Position numbers and translations under genes: made by a program
In this document: piece after piece, positions 16,051 through 26,015 of the stretch
Layout: every line of letters starts with the position of its first letter
How positions within the stretch are numbered: position 1 is the first letter of the stretch
The notes under the pieces: generated by a model
Seen by the model: the letters and a program-made list of their open reading frames with translations, nothing else
What the model was told of the DNA's origin: nothing
The model's database searches: none
NCBI GenBank assembly: GCA_944393345.1
Contig: CALXZW010000001.1
Coordinates: 1 to 40,221, forward strand
Direction: 5' to 3'
DNA: 40,221 bases
DNA from: an uncultured Clostridia bacterium
Lineage (GTDB): Bacteria; Bacillota; Clostridia; TANB77; CAG-508

Positions 16051-16083
16051 AAAAAAATAGAAGGTTTTGCCTTCTATTTTTTT
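16051..16083. terminator. Bidirectional rho-independent terminator downstream of the adhesin operon
   Basis: TAGAAGG (16058-16064) / CCTTCTA (16070-16076), flanked by an A-run and a T-run. Confidence 0.7.
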
Positions 16084-16086
16084 ACC

Positions 16087-19000
16087 TTATTTATTTAAAA
16101 TTTTTTTCTTAATGAATACAACTCCTGCTCCTAATATTACTAATGCACTTACAACTATTGATATTGGAACTATAAAGTTTAGATTATCACCAGTTTTTGA
16201 AGTGGCTATTACTTCTTCTGCCATATCATCATCTGACTCTGTTTTTCCAGTACCTGGTATATAATTTCCTGGTGTAAATGTAAGATTTCCTCCACCTGTT
16301 CTTTCTATTTTAACTATTTCTGTTTCATTATCTAAATTGATTTCTTGAGATACTGCTAATAATTTTGAAACATTTAAGTATATTGTTTCTTTTTCTTCTG
16401 GTTTTAATTTTTTATCTTTTAATGCTTCTGTATATAAAATTGTTGTTTCATTTATTGTACTATTTTCATCTTCATATACCACTTCATCAACTATTGTTTT
16501 AATATCATCTAAAGTTTTTGTTTCCCATCCTTGATTTGCTTCTTTATCAAAGTTCCAATCATCATCTAGATAATCTATTATTGCTGTTGGTGTTATTGTA
16601 GCAACATCTCCTCCTGTTATTCCATATTTATAGTATTCTTCTGTTAAGTATTCTAGTTCACTATTATTTTTTACTGTTATTCTATATTGAACTTCTAAAT
16701 GTGCTCCTTCCATCAATTCGTTATCTATTTCAATTTTTAAATAGCCATTTTTAGGTAGATTATCTGATGGTGGCATATATGATACATATCTTTCTTCACC
16801 AGTTAAATTTCCATTTTCATCAATAGATACATCTGCAATTACTTGTCCATTTGCAAGTGTTAATTTTAATGTATTTATTCTCTTAATAAGTGCTAAATCT
16901 TGTCTTGCTCTTTCAACAATACCAAAATCAACATTATTTATCCTATAGGTATATTTATCGCCTGTTGAAGCTGTATATGTTGTATCATATTCTACACCAA
17001 TTCCCATTGTTGGAGTAGTAGAATCCATCTTTAATGCTTCTCCTTGGTCTATTTTTTGTCTAGTTTCATAATTATCAACTGCATCATTTAATCTTGTCTC
17101 TACATCTTGTTTGTACCACTCTTTATTATTTAAATTATTTTGATATCTTTCTTTATCATATATTGTTCCTTTATATTTTTGAACAGTATATGTTTCATCT
17201 CCCCAAACATATGTTAATACATAATCTCCTGGAATAAAATCTGCAATTAAGAAATCACCATTTGTATCTGTTGTTGCCTTATATTCTTTTCCACTACCAG
17301 TTTTTTCTGTGAATACTACTTCAACATTTGGTATTCCTGCTTCACCTTCCTCATATGCTCCACTACCTTGTCTGATTCTACCTGTTAACAATCCTTCTTC
17401 TGTAGAATCTAAGAATACTTTTCCTGCTAATTCTCTTGCATTTGCAACTTCTAATTTTAATGCTGGGCTTGAATCTGTATCATCTTCATATGTTGCAGTA
17501 TTACCAGGAATTGCATTTCCAGGATTTGAATCTTTATCTATTCCTGCATAAATGTTTCCATCTTTATCAAATACTGAATATGAGTTTATTTCTACTACAT
17601 TTTCTAAATTTTCTTTGTCATTTAATATATTGATAACTGCTTCTCTATTTAGTTCAAATTGCACATATATATCACTTTGTTGTTGAGCATCTATTTTTAT
17701 CTTTGTAGGTATTATGTATTTGTTATAGTTATCATCATATTTAGCGATTTGATTATTAGTACTTGTCATCATTGATGAATTTACAACAACATCACCTTTT
17801 GCATCTAAAGATGTTCCTATTGATTTAATAGTATATCTACTATCAAAATAGTCTACTATTGAATTTACTTGAGCACTTAGATTTGTTGATTGATTCTTCA
17901 ATGCTATCTTATAAGTGATATATACTTTCAGTTCTTTACTCTTGTCATTTTCATTTACATATTCGTAATCTGATTTATATATTGGTCTTGTATATGACAT
18001 ACTAGAATATTTATTTCCAAATTTAACACCTACATTAAATCCATCCCCGTATTCTCCTTGATTTTCAAATCTTTGTGCATAATTATATGTATGCTCATAT
18101 CCATTTATAGCTAATCTAACATTTTGTATATCTTTCATTACAGCTAGATCTGGTTGTTCTCTTTCATATAAACCTAAATTTATATTTTTAATTTCTTTCA
18201 TACCAGGTTGATAATTTTCCTCAATTTTATATCCTGCTTCATCCGTGTTTGCAACTATTGGATATTGACCATTATTAATTAATGTTGCTGTGTGTGCCGT
18301 TTCGTCTATATTATATGTCAAATTATGTTTTCTATTATAATTCGAATCACTTGTATATCCTGTATCTCTACTTTCACCTTGGATAATAGCAAAATCCTTA
18401 TTAAAGTTTGTTCTGGTTGTTGCATTTTCTATCGCTTTAGATCCATTATCTTTATCTATATGTGGTATTACATTTGTATATGTTAAACCATCATATTCGA
18501 ATTCTATATAATATTCAGATAATTTATCTACTAAAACATCTGTAAATAAGTATGATCCTCCATTTGCAGTTTTTGCCTCTTTTATTACATTTCCAGATGA
18601 ATCTTTTAATCTAACTGTTATTCCATCTAATAATATATCTTCACTATCATAATCATTATCTTTGTATAAGTCGTTTCTTAATGATTGCTTTCCAAAAATC
18701 TTGTCAAGCCATACATAACCTGATAATTTAATATATTTCTGTTTATTTCCTATTGTCATCTCAGTTGTTTTATCAACAACTATAGTTTTCTCTTGTCCAT
18801 CTTTTATTATTTCATAACCATAATTTGGATTTTTAGTTTCATATGCTACATATGTTCCTACAAGTAGATTTTTTACTAATATTTCTCCATTTTTATCTGT
18901 TACAAATTCTGTTGCCTCTTTTTTATCTACATAAGAAATTGTGCCATCTGAATTTTGTTTTATATATTTTCCTGTTTCTTTATGTTGAATATAAAAACCT

Positions 19001-19971
19001 ACACCTTGAAGTTTTATTGTATTATTATCTTCATCAATTTTTACAACTTTTAAATTTCCTTGTAAATGTATATTATAATTAAAATTACCTTCTATTTCTT
19101 GTTTTCCTTCATCCGGTTCTCTTATAATTAGATTTTGTACATTCCCTCCCGTAACACTTTCTAAGAACCATACTGTTGCTTTTTTTATTTTTACATCACT
19201 TTTACCATAAATTTTTGTTATCTTTGTTACTCCTTGATTTGCAGGTATTAATACATAAAAATCAGAATCAGTTTTAATTTTGCTTACATTTATCACTTCT
19301 TCTGTAGTTCCTTTATATGTACTGTATAAAACATTTGATATTTCTTTACCATTTTGATCATATACAGGTACTTCTGTTATTGTTCCCGGAAATGACCAAT
19401 TAAAAGGCCCTATTCTTATATATTGTTTACCATTCTTTTCTGTTACATTTGCTTTTATTTTTGATTTATCTGTATTGTCTGTAAATTTCATATTTTTTAT
19501 TTGATTTGCATAATCTAAAGCATCTTGATCTAAATCCACTTCTTCTCCATGACTAGAACTCATAAATCCTTTATATAGTCCATTATGATATTGTCCTACT
19601 TTATTCATCCATGTTGCTCCAAAATTCCATATTGCATTTTGAACTGGTCCAGACTCTTTATCATCCCCATTGTTAGATGTTAATATTTTAACAAATTGTG
19701 CATTATATGTACTATCAATTACTTTACCTTTATGATCTGTTGATTTTGTTCCTTCAATTACTACTTTTGATATTACTTTATATGGTTGTGTTCCTTTTAA
19801 TGATTGATTATGCTCCACACAATATATATCATCATTACTAATATAATCCATATATGAAATATTCAAACTATCTCCAACATTATAGTTATATGCATTTGCA
19901 ACACTATTAAATCCTAAAATAACCATTGTAAATATAATACTTACTGCTAATGCTTTTTTAATTTTATTCAT
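16087..19971 (-). CDS. Large surface protein (1294 aa): signal peptide, putative thioester (TED-like) adhesin head, Cna-B/SdrD-B-like repeats, C-terminal sorting-signal-like anchor
   Basis: Signal peptide ends ...SVANA. YCVEHNQ (Cys51) and VQNAIW (Gln111) resemble the TED Cys and TQxA(I/V)W motifs. Prealbumin-like repeats are present (LKVVKIDEDN...VGTYVAYETKNPNYGYE; GKVFLDS...TTDTNGDFLIADFIPGDYVLTY). The C-terminus is SKTGDN, a hydrophobic helix, then KKKILNK. Confidence 0.8.
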   Translation of the reverse strand: MNKIKKALAVSIIFTMVILGFNSVANAYNYNVGDSLNISYMDYISNDDIYCVEHNQSLKGTQPYKVISKVVIEGTKSTDHKGKVIDSTYNAQFVKILTSNNGDDKESGPVQNAIWNFGATWMNKVGQYHNGLYKGFMSSSHGEEVDLDQDALDYANQIKNMKFTDNTDKSKIKANVTEKNGKQYIRIGPFNWSFPGTITEVPVYDQNGKEISNVLYSTYKGTTEEVINVSKIKTDSDFYVLIPANQGVTKITKIYGKSDVKIKKATVWFLESVTGGNVQNLIIREPDEGKQEIEGNFNYNIHLQGNLKVVKIDEDNNTIKLQGVGFYIQHKETGKYIKQNSDGTISYVDKKEATEFVTDKNGEILVKNLLVGTYVAYETKNPNYGYEIIKDGQEKTIVVDKTTEMTIGNKQKYIKLSGYVWLDKIFGKQSLRNDLYKDNDYDSEDILLDGITVRLKDSSGNVIKEAKTANGGSYLFTDVLVDKLSEYYIEFEYDGLTYTNVIPHIDKDNGSKAIENATTRTNFNKDFAIIQGESRDTGYTSDSNYNRKHNLTYNIDETAHTATLINNGQYPIVANTDEAGYKIEENYQPGMKEIKNINLGLYEREQPDLAVMKDIQNVRLAINGYEHTYNYAQRFENQGEYGDGFNVGVKFGNKYSSMSYTRPIYKSDYEYVNENDKSKELKVYITYKIALKNQSTNLSAQVNSIVDYFDSRYTIKSIGTSLDAKGDVVVNSSMMTSTNNQIAKYDDNYNKYIIPTKIKIDAQQQSDIYVQFELNREAVINILNDKENLENVVEINSYSVFDKDGNIYAGIDKDSNPGNAIPGNTATYEDDTDSSPALKLEVANARELAGKVFLDSTEEGLLTGRIRQGSGAYEEGEAGIPNVEVVFTEKTGSGKEYKATTDTNGDFLIADFIPGDYVLTYVWGDETYTVQKYKGTIYDKERYQNNLNNKEWYKQDVETRLNDAVDNYETRQKIDQGEALKMDSTTPTMGIGVEYDTTYTASTGDKYTYRINNVDFGIVERARQDLALIKRINTLKLTLANGQVIADVSIDENGNLTGEERYVSYMPPSDNLPKNGYLKIEIDNELMEGAHLEVQYRITVKNNSELEYLTEEYYKYGITGGDVATITPTAIIDYLDDDWNFDKEANQGWETKTLDDIKTIVDEVVYEDENSTINETTILYTEALKDKKLKPEEKETIYLNVSKLLAVSQEINLDNETEIVKIERTGGGNLTFTPGNYIPGTGKTESDDDMAEEVIATSKTGDNLNFIVPISIVVSALVILGAGVVFIKKKILNK

Positions 19972-19992: not shown

Positions 19993-22900
19993 CTATATTT
20001 CTTTCTTTAAAGATTTTTTATTATTTCTTATTACAACAACTGCTACTACACTTAATATTGCAATCACTATTATTGTTATACCTATATATACTGCTCCACC
20101 AGTTCTTAAACTTATAATAACATCTGCATAATTCATATCATTTTCACCTTGTACTTTATTTCCTGGTGTTGAATTTACATCTTCTAGTCCTAATTCATTA
20201 TATGATTCAGCAATTTCTGCTGTATTATTTATACGTCCTAAATTATTTTCATTAAGTGTTTTTGTTAATGTTAATGTTAATGTTTTCGTTTCTCCTGCTA
20301 ATATTTTTTCATTTGCTAAACTTGTATTATATAATACTCCATTACTTAAATACCAGTCTTTATTTAATTCTGAACTAAATTGAAGATCGTTTGGTATATA
20401 ATCTGCTATTTTCTTTGCATACCCTTCAACTTCACCAACATTAGAAACATTTATTTTATATTCTATTAATACTGTTGTACCTTTTAATTGTTTTGAATCA
20501 ATTTCAATTTTAGCTAAAGTTTCATTATTAAACTCTTTAACTGTTGTTCCTGCTGAATTTTGTACTATCATTTTGCTTACATATTTATCTAATTTTAAAT
20601 CATAAGTTTTTAATTCTATTAATCCTATATTAATATCTGAAATATTTTCATTTTCTATGTTTATTATATCTGTACTTGCCACTTTTTGTTTATTATTTTC
20701 TATTGTTAATTCAGATATCATAACATCCGAATTAATGCTTTCATCTACATCTGCTACTTTATATTTTGTTACTGTATATTGTGCTGTATTATATTCAAAT
20801 ATTACTATATATTTTCCGTTTACAATGTTATCTAATACATATAATCCATTATCATCTGTTGTTATTTCTAATATATTTCCGTTTTCATCTTTTACTAAAT
20901 TATTTGTGTTAGCATTTAATAATTTAACTTTTATGTTGCTTAATGTTTTTTCATCAGAATCTTTTTTACCATTCCCATTTGCATCATACCAAGCCAAACC
21001 ACTAATCATTTTTGTTCCTTCTGCTATATCACTATCTCCATCATTATTATCTCCTTCGTTATCTCCCGTATTGCCTTCATCTCCTCCATCATCTGGTTCT
21101 GTTGAATTAGCTTCTATAATATGACTTATTTCTATTGTTTCTGCTAAAATTTCACCTATAAAACTAACTTGAGCTTTATTAGTAATCGTTTCTGCTTCAT
21201 CTCTTGCATCAGAATAATTAACAACTGTTTCAATTTTTATTTCACATTCTCCATTTTCCATTATATCTACTTTTAATTCTATATCATTGTCCTCTATTCC
21301 TTTTACTTCTTCTCCATCAAAAGTAATTTTATTTATTGATAATGATTTTGGTATAGAATCTGTAAATGTTATTCCTTCTGCTCTTACAGGTGTTTCATTT
21401 TTTATGTTTATTGTATATTCTATGATATCTCCTGCTTTTATATATTTGCTTTCTGTATTTGTTTTTATTGACATTGATAATTTCATATTATTAACTTCAT
21501 CTTGCCATACGTTAGATTGATAAGTTTTATTATTATCTTGTGCTTGTGCTGAAAATTTAATTATGTTGTTTTCTGTTTTATTTATTGACATATCATAACT
21601 TAATACTTTTGTTTCTCCTGGTTCTAAAGTTCCTATATTTATTTTTTCTGAATATTCTATTTGCTCTGATTTTACATTTGAATTATCTATATTAGAATCT
21701 TCTATAGCTTTATTAAAATCTATGCTCTTTCCTGAACCTGGTATATATATATCATCATCATTTACTTCTTCTGTTGCTAACCCTGTTATTAATGTTAATC
21801 TTTCTAGTTTTAAATTTTCAGGAAGATTTGTTGATACTTTTACATTATCTTGTTTTTGATCAGAAATATTTTCTACCATTACATAATATTGGACTGAACC
21901 GTAATTATATAAATCTATTTTTCTATCAGTTACTCTTTTTACACTTATACTTAATTTTCCTGCTTCTGACAAATTGTATAATTCATTTGATTCATTTATT
22001 GCTTCACCATATTTTGTTTCAATAGAATTTATTATCTTAGTAGCATTTTGTGTATCTTTATTTACTCTTACTTCATATTCAATAATGGCCTTTTCGCCCA
22101 CTTTTAAGTTTTCTATTTTTTCTTCATATTTATCTGTTGCTACCTCTTTATAATATGATGAACCAGTATATTCATAGTTTTCTTGAGGTACTACTAATGT
22201 AGTTCCTTCTGGTATTTTTCCTGTTACTATTACATTTTTAATATCCTCAGATCCTGTATTTGATATTTCTATATGATATTTTATTACTTCTCCATTTTTA
22301 ATTGTTTCATTTGAACTAATATTTTTATCTCCTACTGTCGCCGTTAAAGTTGTTTCTAATTTAGGTCCAACACCTGTGTCCAATTCAATGTCTGTTGAAT
22401 TCATTTGATTTGTAATATTTGAGATAGTATTTGTATAATTTACCGTATAACCTTCTGTTGCTTTTTGATTGTACTCAAGATTTTTTGGTACTTCTATACT
22501 GTATGTTCCCACTATACTTTGTTGTGGCTCTAAATTATCATATTGTATTAAATATTTTTTTACATTTTCGTTATTTTCAATATTTTCTTTCCATTGATTA
22601 TTTTCATCCTGTAAGTTATCTGTTGCATTTTCATTTTCTGAATAATATATTTTTGCATTTTCCATATTTATATTGCTAGTTACTTTTGCTCCTAAATTAT
22701 TATTTTGGCTATCTGTTGGGAAATCTCCTAATATTTTTATATCTTTAATTGCTTCTGAATTATTGTTTATCACTTCTACTTGTACATTTAAAGATTTTTT
22801 ATCTTGGCCCTTTTTCATATCTACTTTTTTGTTTGCTTCTTGGCCAATTGTTTCTATTCCTAATTCACTTATACTGTTAATTGTTGTTACATCTTTTGGG

Positions 22901-24894
22901 GCAACAAGTTTAATATTTGCTAATGTTTCTCCTATACTTTTATTATCTACATATGTATTTGCATTTTTATTTATGTATTGCATTTTTATGTTACTATCTT
23001 GTGTTGCTGTTTTTCTATTCAATGTTACATTTGCATTAATTACAATAACTGCTCCTTCAATTGATGCTTCTTTATATTTAGTTTGTTTTCCTTCTAAATA
23101 TATCTTTATATTTCTTCCGATTATTTCATAATTTTTTATTTTTAATTCTTCTTCGAATATTAAATCTATATTATTTACTTCAACTTGCTCTACATTTTCT
23201 GGTAATTCAATATTTAAAACCGGTGCATCATATAAGTCATATTGTTCACTATTTGTTTTTAATATTACTTTCATTTCAAGATTATTTTTAATCACTGTTG
23301 ATAATGTATCTTTGTTAATTTCTAATCTTGCTTCTGTCACTGTTTCTTTTAGTTCTATATTAGAAGTAGTTGTAATTTCTAATCCTTTTTTATTCTTTCC
23401 TATATATTGAGCAGTTAAATTCGTTTCTATACTATTTGCATTTTTTACTATGTTTCTATCATTTTGTTTTATTATTTTTGAATGTCTTAATTCAATTTTT
23501 CCTTCCTTTATTGGTGCTGATGTTTCTATTTCTATATTTTTTGCTTCGACACTATTATATTCTATAATCATATCTCCATATTCATTTACAGATGTATCTT
23601 TATTAATAGTTGTTATTACTTTTCCATCTTCATCTTTAATTGTCATTATACCGTTTTCACCAAAAATTTTATCAAAATCTTCTTTTCTTATGTATGTTGT
23701 TTGATAAATTATATTAGCATCTCCTAATTTTTCACCAGATTTAAAACTATTATTTTCTTTTATTTTTATTTGCTCTCCTGTATTTGCAAGATTTACATTT
23801 AATGTTGTTATTGAGTTATATAACCTATCTATTCCTGAATATAAATTTCCTTTATACATACTTGTTTCTGTATTATTTGTTTCTACTGATATTGTATAAT
23901 CCTTTTCTTCATTATCTAATATAGTACTTGTTGTTTTAGCAGTTATTTCATTTTCATCATAAAGTGTTACTTTTTCTTCTGCTTTAATTTCAATATTTTC
24001 TAAATTGATATCTTTAGGATATATGTAAGTTATTATTATATTTTCGTTTCCATTTTTATTCCATAATATTTCACTATTAGAATTAACTTCATTTTCTAAC
24101 TCGAATTCTATAATATCATTCTCATATTTATATTCATATTTTGACATATTATTTAAATTTGTAACTTCTAAAATTTCAGGTTTATTACCATCAATTTCTG
24201 GAACATTAATTTTGGAAATTATATTTTTTATTGGATAATTATTATTATTAACACCTAAATCTAAAGAAAATTGAACTACTCTTTTTTCCTCACCATTTAA
24301 TTCAATAATTTTATTAGTAACAATATTTATATTATTTATCAAATCATCCTCAGTATTATTTTCTACCAATTTAAGAGTAATTTCTCTTTCTGAATTTATA
24401 TTAATATCTTTCTGAGTGCTATCTTTGTATTCTCCTTCTAATACCACCTTACTATTCATATTTAATAAACCTACATTAAATTTATCATTTGTTATAGGTT
24501 TTATTTTTACAGGAATTTCAACTTTACTCCCTGAATTTAATTGATTTAAATAAATAATATTTCCTTCTACTTTATTTACAAATTCACTTTCTATTTTTAA
24601 GATGTTAAAGTTGCTATCTACTATTTGTAATTTTCCATTAAAATATCCTTCTTTTTTTACATTTAGGTTTATGTATAAAATTTGTTCTTCATTATTTGGT
24701 AAAATTTCAAGAGTTTTTATTCCTTCGCCTTTTTCATTTTTAAAATATGCATCAAATTCTACGTTTGCATGATTTGTAGATATTTTTTCTGCTGCATAAC
24801 TTACAAAATTTGCTCCAACAAATATGAAATTTACCATTGTTAATGTAAGTATTAACGCTAAAATCAATATAGTTTTTAAAATTTTGTTTTTCAT
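19993..24894 (-). CDS. Very large surface protein (about 1633 aa) with DUF11-type and SdrD-B-like repeats and a C-terminal sorting-signal-like anchor
   Basis: The start is moved to the ATG at 24894, after AAAGGAGGAAATAAT. A signal peptide and DUF11-like repeats are present (GEVIKYHIEISNTGSEDIKNVIVTGKIPEGTTLV; IEYTINIKNETPVRAEGITFTDSIP). An SdrD-B-like unit is GLAWYDANGNGKKDSDE...TTDDNGLYVLDNIVNGKY. The C-terminus is SLRTGG, a TM helix, then RNNKKSLKKEI. Confidence 0.8.
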   Translation of the reverse strand: MKNKILKTILILALILTLTMVNFIFVGANFVSYAAEKISTNHANVEFDAYFKNEKGEGIKTLEILPNNEEQILYINLNVKKEGYFNGKLQIVDSNFNILKIESEFVNKVEGNIIYLNQLNSGSKVEIPVKIKPITNDKFNVGLLNMNSKVVLEGEYKDSTQKDININSEREITLKLVENNTEDDLINNINIVTNKIIELNGEEKRVVQFSLDLGVNNNNYPIKNIISKINVPEIDGNKPEILEVTNLNNMSKYEYKYENDIIEFELENEVNSNSEILWNKNGNENIIITYIYPKDINLENIEIKAEEKVTLYDENEITAKTTSTILDNEEKDYTISVETNNTETSMYKGNLYSGIDRLYNSITTLNVNLANTGEQIKIKENNSFKSGEKLGDANIIYQTTYIRKEDFDKIFGENGIMTIKDEDGKVITTINKDTSVNEYGDMIIEYNSVEAKNIEIETSAPIKEGKIELRHSKIIKQNDRNIVKNANSIETNLTAQYIGKNKKGLEITTTSNIELKETVTEARLEINKDTLSTVIKNNLEMKVILKTNSEQYDLYDAPVLNIELPENVEQVEVNNIDLIFEEELKIKNYEIIGRNIKIYLEGKQTKYKEASIEGAVIVINANVTLNRKTATQDSNIKMQYINKNANTYVDNKSIGETLANIKLVAPKDVTTINSISELGIETIGQEANKKVDMKKGQDKKSLNVQVEVINNNSEAIKDIKILGDFPTDSQNNNLGAKVTSNINMENAKIYYSENENATDNLQDENNQWKENIENNENVKKYLIQYDNLEPQQSIVGTYSIEVPKNLEYNQKATEGYTVNYTNTISNITNQMNSTDIELDTGVGPKLETTLTATVGDKNISSNETIKNGEVIKYHIEISNTGSEDIKNVIVTGKIPEGTTLVVPQENYEYTGSSYYKEVATDKYEEKIENLKVGEKAIIEYEVRVNKDTQNATKIINSIETKYGEAINESNELYNLSEAGKLSISVKRVTDRKIDLYNYGSVQYYVMVENISDQKQDNVKVSTNLPENLKLERLTLITGLATEEVNDDDIYIPGSGKSIDFNKAIEDSNIDNSNVKSEQIEYSEKINIGTLEPGETKVLSYDMSINKTENNIIKFSAQAQDNNKTYQSNVWQDEVNNMKLSMSIKTNTESKYIKAGDIIEYTINIKNETPVRAEGITFTDSIPKSLSINKITFDGEEVKGIEDNDIELKVDIMENGECEIKIETVVNYSDARDEAETITNKAQVSFIGEILAETIEISHIIEANSTEPDDGGDEGNTGDNEGDNNDGDSDIAEGTKMISGLAWYDANGNGKKDSDEKTLSNIKVKLLNANTNNLVKDENGNILEITTDDNGLYVLDNIVNGKYIVIFEYNTAQYTVTKYKVADVDESINSDVMISELTIENNKQKVASTDIINIENENISDINIGLIELKTYDLKLDKYVSKMIVQNSAGTTVKEFNNETLAKIEIDSKQLKGTTVLIEYKINVSNVGEVEGYAKKIADYIPNDLQFSSELNKDWYLSNGVLYNTSLANEKILAGETKTLTLTLTKTLNENNLGRINNTAEIAESYNELGLEDVNSTPGNKVQGENDMNYADVIISLRTGGAVYIGITIIVIAILSVVAVVVIRNNKKSLKKEI

Positions 24895-25273
24895 ATTATT
24901 TCCTCCTTTAAAAAACATTTCAAAATTAATATTTCCTTTATATAATAGCATAATAAACAGAAAAATCAATATTGTTATTTTAACTTTTTTTAATATGCTT
25001 AAAATCTATTACGGAAACTCATTATAATTTTTTAGGCTAATTATTACATTTTTATTACATTTTTGTAATTTTTTTGTAATATTTTTAATAGCCTCTCTAC
25101 TATATATTATACCTTTATTTATTGATTTTTTCAATGTTTTTTATACTTTTTATGTTAATTTTTTAACTTGCTACATTATCATTTAAATTTTTTGATAACA
25201 TTTTTTATTGTTCTTCATATAATATTACATACAATCAATTATTTTGAATATATATGTTTTAGAGGTGATTATT

Positions 25274-25684
25274 TTGGAAAATTTTAATTTTGATGAAAAT
25301 TCTATTAATAAACTAAAAGAAATGATAAATAAAGGAGATTTATCTGATGTTATTTCAAAAATTCCTCCTGAAATGCTACAAAACTTTTCTAATGCAATGT
25401 CTTCTAATCAGAACAAAACAACTAATGATTCTACTAAAAATAATTCTTCTAATAATTCCAACAATTTTGATTTTTCTAATCTTGATATAAATACAATAAT
25501 GAAAATGAAGTCTGTAATGGAAAAAATGAATAATACTAATGATTCAAGATCTAATCTTCTAAACTCACTTAAGCCATACTTAAGAGAAGAAAGAAAAGGT
25601 AAACTAGATCAATATTCTAATATTATGAATATTGCTAAAATTGCTGAGTTATTAAATAATAAGGAGAATAATTCGAATGTTTAG
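25274..25684 (+). CDS. Hypothetical protein with an Asn/Ser-rich low-complexity centre
   Basis: The probable start is TTG at 25274, which is 5 nt after AGAGGTGA (25261-25268). It overlaps the next gene by 8 nt. No recognised family. Confidence 0.5.
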   Translation: MENFNFDENSINKLKEMINKGDLSDVISKIPPEMLQNFSNAMSSNQNKTTNDSTKNNSSNNSNNFDFSNLDINTIMKMKSVMEKMNNTNDSRSNLLNSLKPYLREERKGKLDQYSNIMNIAKIAELLNNKENNSNV

Positions 25685-26015
25685 TTTTCCTTTTTTTGGA
25701 TTTCCATATAATTCTATTTATAATAATTATTATAGACCTTATCCTTATATAAAAAAAAATAATAGAGATTTTTGTGATAACCAGAATTCTCATGTTGAAA
25801 ATGCTGTAAATAAAAAAAAAACATCTAAATACAATTTAAATTCCTCTATCAATTTCTATGGCTTTTCTGATATTGAAAAACCCGTATTAGAAATTATGGG
25901 AATTAAATTATATTTAGATGATATTATAATACTTGGAGTTTTATTTTTTCTTTATTCTGAAGGTGTTAAAGATGATATTCTATTTATTTGTCTAATTATG
26001 CTTTTGCTTAGCTAA
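25677..26015 (+). CDS. Hypothetical small protein with a Tyr/Pro/Phe-rich N-terminus and a C-terminal TM segment
   Basis: GGAGAATAATTCGAATG coupling with the previous ORF. The C-terminus is hydrophobic (IIILGVLFFLY...LFICLIMLLLS). Its stop abuts the minC stop with 0 nt of spacer. Confidence 0.45.
   Translation: MFSFPFFGFPYNSIYNNYYRPYPYIKKNNRDFCDNQNSHVENAVNKKKTSKYNLNSSINFYGFSDIEKPVLEIMGIKLYLDDIIILGVLFFLYSEGVKDDILFICLIMLLLS

Follow-up and report, generated by a model that had tools for sequence, protein, structure and literature searches.

A probable divergent Class II thioester domain, with Cys51 and Gln279 as its predicted bond partners, on a giant surface protein of uncultured gut Clostridia

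The window analysed here is a whole stretch of 40,221 nucleotides from an uncultured Clostridia bacterium (contig CALXZW010000001.1 of assembly GCA_944393345.1; Bacillota, Clostridia, TANB77, CAG-508), and our subject is a surface protein of 1294 residues, P0001, whose open reading frame runs uninterrupted through 16087..19971 on the minus strand. Our results indicate that the N-terminal head of P0001 is probably a functional, divergent Class II thioester domain (TED) in which a thioester would join Cys51 to Gln279, displayed at the tip of a long sortase-type fibre and acting as a covalent adhesin for a gut ligand. Thioester adhesins are, to our knowledge, the only bacterial adhesins that bond covalently to their ligands, and work on them has centred on the pathogens Streptococcus pyogenes, Bacillus anthracis and Clostridium perfringens. 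An initial annotation of the window, made from the sequence alone, had already placed a thioester-type head on this adhesin, a proposal that the three TED motifs, structural matches confined to Class II TEDs and the TIE architecture of the protein make very probable. The bond that it drew, from Cys51 to Gln111, is a different matter and is taken up below.

TEDs possess three motifs, [YFL]CΦζ, ΦQζΦΦ and a helical TQxxΦW. The bond is formed by the strand-borne Cys of the first and the Gln of the second, a weak strand motif ~150–230 residues further on (PMC4450167, PMC6194298). The Gln and Trp of the TQxxΦW helix only hydrogen-bond the Cys backbone and are dispensable for the bond, and mutating that Gln leaves thioester formation intact (PMC4450167, PMC6194298); no residue of this motif is fully conserved across TEDs (PMC4450167). 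All three motifs are present in P0001 in the published order, as Y50-C51-V52-E53, V110-Q-N-A-I-W115 and V278-Q279-N280-L281-I282. The last is an exact fit to ΦQζΦΦ, and its Gln lies 228 residues beyond Cys51, a spacing that fits Class II TEDs. The helix motif is a variant in which Val replaces the Thr and Gln111 varies within the family. The sequence confirms both the reading frame and the two motifs on which the initial annotation had relied, YCVEHNQ with its Cys51 codon TGT at 19821..19819 and GPVQNAIWNF with its Gln111 codon CAA at 19641..19639. The features of P0001 are as follows.

16087..19971, minus strand: whole gene for P0001, 1294 aa with a single Cys and free of in-frame CGG codons (open reading frame listing and composition).
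19891..19971, minus strand: Sec-like signal peptide, residues 1-27, MNKIKK...VANA with the cut before Y (inspection: basic n-region, hydrophobic core, AxA cleavage site).
19072..19890, minus strand: probable divergent Class II TED, residues 28-300 (AlphaFold2 model, Foldseek matches, sub-threshold PF08341).
19813..19824, minus strand: [YFL]CΦζ motif YCVE with the predicted thioester Cys51 (invariance, β-strand in the model, alignment to Cys81 of P0272, a canonical TED protein of the same genome).
19627..19644, minus strand: accessory TQxxΦW-type helix motif VQNAIW, in which Gln111 is not the bond partner (helix in the model, Gln111 variable, Trp115 conserved).
19126..19140, minus strand: ΦQζΦΦ motif VQNLI with the predicted thioester Gln279, codon 19137..19135 (invariance, hairpin tip, alignment to P0272 Gln291).
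18742..19062, minus strand: CnaB/SpaA-type stalk domain, residues 304-410 (PF17802, 34.5 bits over 305-410; match to 4UZG).
18424..18660, minus strand: SdrD_B-like domain, residues 438-516 (PF17210, 34.5 bits).
17212..17343, minus strand: CarboxypepD_reg-like β-sandwich, residues 877-920 (PF13620, 39.4 bits).
16090..16203, minus strand: sorting-signal-like C-terminus made up of TSKTG (1257-1261), a hydrophobic helix (1266-1287) and the basic tail KKKILNK (inspection, family comparison).

Cys51 is the sole Cys among the 1294 residues, and the initial annotation was right to choose it, for it is invariant in every homologue examined. A search of a 5.8-billion-protein collection found 154 homologues at E<=0.001, and the 120 of these that were listed are 48–97% identical to P0001 in the head. 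Cys51 is kept throughout the distinct N-termini of these close homologues (91/91, from a set of 92 N-termini), and the position of Gln111 holds Gln in 41 of the 92, Ala in 37, Ser in 9 and Pro in 3. When 1.84 billion cluster representatives were searched exhaustively with phmmer, 169 relatives emerged, 86 of which span the whole domain at 26–51% identity. Only three of the 273 positions, Cys51, Gly188 and Gln279, are invariant in these diverse relatives (86/86); Gln111 is kept in 65/86, and the position of Trp115 is occupied by Trp in 68 and Tyr in 17. An independent set of 81 sequences, comprising the window and 80 species-level genomes, all of them metagenome-assembled genomes of uncultured gut Clostridia, returned 81/81 for Cys51, 81/81 for Gln279 and 32/81 for Gln111 (Ala in 34). 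Gln111 is replaced in more than half of the orthologues, the substitutes being Ala, Ser, Pro, Thr, Lys or Arg. A single Cys in an exported protein, conserved jointly with a Gln, marks a TED.

The AlphaFold2 model of residues 28–300, built from a 30-sequence alignment, reached a pLDDT of 94 and a pTM of 0.86. Its elements run from short head strands through three helices and seven strands to a very long β-hairpin, with Cys51 on a β-strand (model positions 22–24) and VQNAIW on the second of the three helices (model positions 82–97); Gln279 occupies the tip of the long P/Q hairpin, where the second hairpin strand begins. Class II TEDs have been described as having a head built of a β-barrel and three helices, an inserted β-sandwich of seven strands and a long P/Q hairpin that runs back to the head (PMC6194298), and the predicted order of elements in our model matches that description. 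Comparison of the model with 350,542 PDB chains by Foldseek gave only four matches at E<=1e-3, all to Class II TEDs: chains C and A of 6fwy (E=5.5e-7 and 9.1e-7, probability 1.00) and chains B and A of 6fwv (E=2.4e-4 and 3.1e-4). These alignments span ~290 columns, and the next match stands at E=2.3e-2.

The residues can be traced to a solved structure through P0272, a canonical TED protein of 427 aa encoded elsewhere in the same genome (contig C4, L007:1270-2553, plus strand, ~18.2-19.4 kb, just downstream of a sortase gene). P0272 scores 39.6-44 bits on PF08341, the Pfam TED family (gathering threshold 22 bits), and matches BaTIE (6FWV) at E=9e-18. A phmmer alignment pairs its Gln291, in SMQDYAL, with 6fwv chain residue 235, in KVQNTT, which given the Glu35 construct offset is BaTIE Gln266, the crystallographically confirmed bond-forming Gln (PMC6194298). 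The known Cys-Gln pairs are Cys71-Gln266 in BaTIE, Cys296-Gln467 in SaTIE and Cys88-Gln292 in EfmTIE86 (PMC6194298). For P0001, hhalign sets Gln279 opposite P0272 Gln291, both against P0272 itself (E=0.016) and against an alignment of the P0272 family (E=0.0011), and a head-only hhalign (E=0.0076) pairs Cys51 with P0272 Cys81 and brings the strands on either side into register. Both Cys fall on PF08341 position 4, assuming ungapped starts, where the alignments begin with profile position 1 at P0272 residue 78 and profile position 2 at P0001 residue 49. From the Gln to the first CnaB Lys there are 32 residues in P0001 (Gln279-K311) and 31 in BaTIE (Gln266-Lys297). These alignment links are individually weak but independent and mutually consistent. 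Only local alignments were used here; a global hhalign of the P0001 family against the canonical TED family misregistered the head and was discarded.

P0272 and P0001 come from one organism and share a Class II-like plan (in P0272, Cys81 and Gln291 at a spacing of 210) in which the TED is followed by a SpaA/CnaB domain. The Gln of the helix motif is replaced in P0272 also, the motif reading TKQAIY with Lys at that position. Unlike P0001, P0272 passes the Pfam TED threshold, is short and carries LPITG, and the hhalign E of ~1e-3 indicates only distant kinship between the two. P0272 ends in ...RKLPITGM at its stop codon, with no hydrophobic helix or basic tail after LPITG and with a hairpin directly following, and its homologues are of the same length (422-439 aa). 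As read from the sequence, the C-terminus of P0272 has the LPXTG motif of a sorting signal and lacks its other parts. A third TED-like N-terminus occurs in this genome on contig C99 (L009:1-2007, minus strand), with IYCAKAG, VQQAALW as its helix motif and 14 bits on PF08341, below the threshold; that protein also has DUF11 repeats and ends at the contig edge.

P0001 is laid out as a TIE protein, with a signal peptide (by inspection), an N-terminal TED, isopeptide-type stalk domains and a tripartite C-terminal anchor. Over residues 304-407 the stalk matches the CnaB-type domain of Spb1, a streptococcal pilin (4UZG, E=1e-5), and Lys311, the Glu in AYETK and the Asn in TIGNK form a candidate isopeptide triad by inspection. 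The stalk and anchor foreseen by the initial annotation are borne out: the CnaB/SpaA and SdrD_B matches and the tripartite C-terminus are there, the anchor motif being TSKTG and not LPXTG. Across the P0001 family the anchor consensus is ETVIVTP[ASNP]TG[ADE]N, then a transmembrane helix and a KKK tail, and TSKTG reads as a derived variant of TP[ASNP]TG in which the Pro has mutated in P0001 and its closest relatives. We take the family consensus to resemble the (S/P)PxTG class of clostridial sortase signals more than LPXTG. Some ~650 residues of the stalk (520-870 and 930-1250; ~16220-18410, minus strand) had no Pfam family in the scan. They are probably further Ig-like modules, and homologue annotation lists a faint PF22904 (NOMO1-like) match.

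Several results weigh against a thioester domain in P0001. Full-length P0001 had no TED match in Pfam or NCBIfam. The isolated domain scored 15.9 bits on PF08341 (E=0.018) in an alignment that covers profile positions 2-98 of 102, and a six-frame genome scan gave 18.4 bits at the same place, both below the cut-off of 22; distant members of the family reached <=13.5 bits. NCBIfam yielded no TED/TQXA-type match even at E<=10, whether with the full protein or the isolated domain, and no PDB TED was found by sequence with either single-sequence phmmer or a 30-sequence profile. By curated sequence thresholds, the P0001 head is not a recognised TED. The initial annotation had named the lack of a significant TED profile match as part of what would count against its proposal; taken strictly the score falls on that side, and the fold evidence still points to a TED. 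The hhalign links to the canonical TED family are themselves weak, at probabilities of 3-20%. Against 6fwy and 6fwv the model reaches Foldseek TM-scores of only 0.24-0.28, at root-mean-square deviations of 11-14 Å, so the global superposition is poor, and the intended control, an AlphaFold2 model of P0272 from an 11-sequence alignment, was too poor (pLDDT 62.5, pTM 0.48) to calibrate these TM-scores. The TSKTG anchor, in place of LPXTG, belongs on the same side of the balance.

The chief rival reading is that P0001 has a TED-derived fold without a thioester, in which Cys51 is kept as a free thiol or nucleophile, as a metal contact or for packing, and the protein adheres non-covalently. A family so divergent that it falls short of the thresholds of Pfam and NCBIfam, and whose structural superposition is poor (TM ~0.26), might have lost the chemistry, and the Cys51-Gln279 bond is a predicted one. 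Against this, Cys51 and Gln279 are invariant together, whereas all the other residues that might be catalytic (Glu53, His54, Gln56 and His129) vary or are deleted in distant relatives, and no Cys-His-Asp or Cys-His-Asn triad survives. We consider loss of the bond unlikely, though a good deal less so than any of the three readings that follow. A Cys protease- or transglutaminase-like centre formed by Cys51 and His129 was also entertained; His129 looks invariant in close orthologues but is deleted or replaced in most distant relatives, and this candidate was rejected.

The other three readings are each unlikely. The first, that the domain is unrelated and that its TED-like motifs and Foldseek matches are coincidental, draws on the failure of every sequence method to pass a curated significance threshold. 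It would have to explain why all four significant structural matches are Class II TEDs with nothing else among the 350,542 chains at E<=1e-3, why the three motifs are correctly ordered and sit in the right structural setting, and why two independent local profile alignments bring the Cys and the Gln into register with a canonical TED. A coincidence of this kind seems very improbable.

Still less can be said for a thioester between Cys51 and Gln111. Both residues are where the initial annotation had them, and the Gln of this motif does adjoin the thioester Cys in TED structures (PMC6194298). In characterised TEDs, however, that Gln only hydrogen-bonds the Cys backbone and its mutation is tolerated (PMC4450167, PMC6194298); in the P0001 family Gln111 is variable (32/81) beside an invariant Cys51, and the canonical P0272 has Lys in its place. 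The premise that the Gln of TQxA(I/V)W forms the thioester is mistaken, since the bond-forming Gln of TEDs sits in the downstream ΦQζΦΦ (PMC4450167, PMC6194298); the TQxxΦW helix motif had been conflated with it. Two caveats attached to that proposal fall away as well. The spacing of ~60 aa, thought unusually short, is a normal distance from the Cys to TQxxΦW (54 aa in P0272), and the change of Thr to Val is unimportant because no TQxxΦW residue is universally conserved in TEDs. We regard a Cys51-Gln111 bond as highly improbable.

Least credible of all is a local Cys51-Gln56 thioester of the complement/α2-macroglobulin kind, set in C-x-E-x-x-Q and akin to CGEQ: Cys51, Glu53 and Gln56 are invariant in close orthologues (>=48% identity), and the neighbouring gene and some homologues weakly match bacterial α2-macroglobulin MG-type domains, but we reject it because Gln56 (41/86) and Glu53 (27/86) are not conserved in diverse relatives, and there is no match to an α2-macroglobulin thioester-domain family, the fold matches are to Gram-positive TEDs and the MG-type matches amount to generic Ig-like β-sandwich similarity.

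A divergent Class II TED with a Cys51-Gln279 bond is best compared with the Class II TEDs of the TIE proteins BaTIE (Bacillus anthracis, 6FWV), EfmTIE86 (Enterococcus faecium, 6FWY) and SaTIE (Staphylococcus aureus) (PMC6194298). As in these, the P0001 domain is N-terminal and directly follows the signal peptide; its model likewise places the Cys of [YFL]CΦζ on a strand and the TQxxΦW-type motif in a central region of three helices, and predicts a β-sandwich of ~100 residues inserted before the long P/Q hairpin that bears the Gln. The Cys-Gln spacing lies in the same range (~170-230; 228 in P0001), and a CnaB-type domain begins ~30 residues after the Gln. P0001 differs from the Class II TIE proteins in being only 12-15% identical to them in the Foldseek alignments (TM 0.24-0.28) with no sequence-level PDB match, in falling below the Pfam TED cut-off, and in having Val for the motif Thr and a variable motif Gln. 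Its stalk is also much longer (~950 aa, with SdrD_B, CarboxypepD_reg-like and unassigned modules), and its anchor is TSKTG (TP[ASNP]TG in the family) where theirs is LPXTG. Class I TEDs, represented by SfbI of Streptococcus pyogenes (5A0L), Cpa, and CpTIE of Clostridium perfringens (5A0G) (PMC4450167), share with P0001 the three motifs and, as predicted and proposed here, the chemistry and function, in which a ligand amine opens a buried Cys-Gln thioester to leave a covalent adhesin-ligand bond. No β-sandwich is inserted in Class I domains, whose Gln follows the Cys by ~150 residues, whereas the model of P0001 has the Class II insert, and no Class I structure appeared at E<=1e-3 in the Foldseek search with that model. 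For the TED of SfbI, pH-reversibility has been described (PMC13685950).

What the analysis shows are the motifs and how they are conserved, a confidently modelled fold with its structural matches, and the arrangement of domains; formation of the bond, the nature of the ligand and processing by a sortase are inferred. After Sec export and folding, the Cys51 thiol would attack the side-chain amide of Gln279, which would reach the head at the tip of the long β-hairpin returning from the inserted β-sandwich. Ammonia would be given off and a thioester, buried in the domain, would link the two residues, and Gln111 and Trp115 on the central helix would only pack and hydrogen-bond against the Cys backbone. 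The head would be displayed on a stalk of ~950 residues, made up of CnaB/SpaA, SdrD_B and further modules of the β-sandwich type. TSKTG, the transmembrane helix and the basic tail would anchor the protein to the cell, and one of the sortases of the genome probably processes it. A nucleophile on the ligand, most likely a Lys ε-amine, would then break open the thioester and form a covalent bond with Gln279, as in SfbI and Cpa.

The gene for P0001 lies between minC and spoIIE, in the order minC, two small genes, a giant DUF11 gene, the giant TED gene and spoIIE. Further features of the surroundings are as follows.

19993..24969, minus strand: upstream partner, a 1658-aa DUF11/SdrD_B surface protein, probably co-transcribed with P0001 (21 nt upstream of it).
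16051..16083, no strand assigned: terminator-like hairpin directly after the P0001 stop codon (sequence).
Contigs C2, C73, C24, C4 and C16 (L001-L005), outside the window: five sortase-domain genes above the Pfam cut-off.

The gene order and the 21-nt spacer are kept in human-gut relatives that are only ~51% identical in the head, which suggests that the two giant proteins work together. The anchor of the partner protein is non-canonical, reading ...SLRTGG followed by a transmembrane helix and a basic tail. The two small genes (25244-26015, plus strand; 146 and 112 aa) have no Pfam family and stand convergent to minC, between it and the adhesin pair, and genes of similar size hold the same slot beside minC in human-gut relatives. 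The assembly, 1.25 Mb in size and 77% complete, has at least five sortase genes that pass the Pfam cut-off and a weak sixth, none of them near the adhesin pair; this is a high number of sortases for a genome of such size. Among 201 sampled genomes of the order, the head domain was found in 25 of the 34 that share the genus of the window (a count that takes in the window's genome) and in 2 of the ~167 others.

Taken together, these observations allow us to suggest, more tentatively than the domain assignment itself and at somewhat less than even odds, that the P0001 family is a distinct and very divergent subfamily of Class II TEDs that Pfam and NCBIfam models miss. It would be found mainly in a single genus-level clade of uncultured gut Clostridia that have small genomes (1.2-2.0 Mb) and come from human, chicken, rabbit and mouse hosts, where it would occupy a fixed slot, paired with a second giant surface protein and carrying a non-LPXTG TP[ASNP]TG/TSKTG anchor.

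P0001 is best seen as a divergent TED of a known kind, useful for annotation and experimental design, and not as a new mechanism. For annotation and mutant design alike, the TQxA(I/V)W motif must not be taken for the bond-forming site; the residue pair for experiments is Cys51 and Gln279, and a seed alignment of the family could extend TED profiles. If the subfamily is real, standard domain models miss a whole group of TEDs in uncultured commensal gut Clostridia, one that can be recognised by a lone invariant Cys and an invariant downstream Gln. A vertically inherited covalent harpoon would then be part of this clade's host-association toolkit and not a mobile virulence factor.

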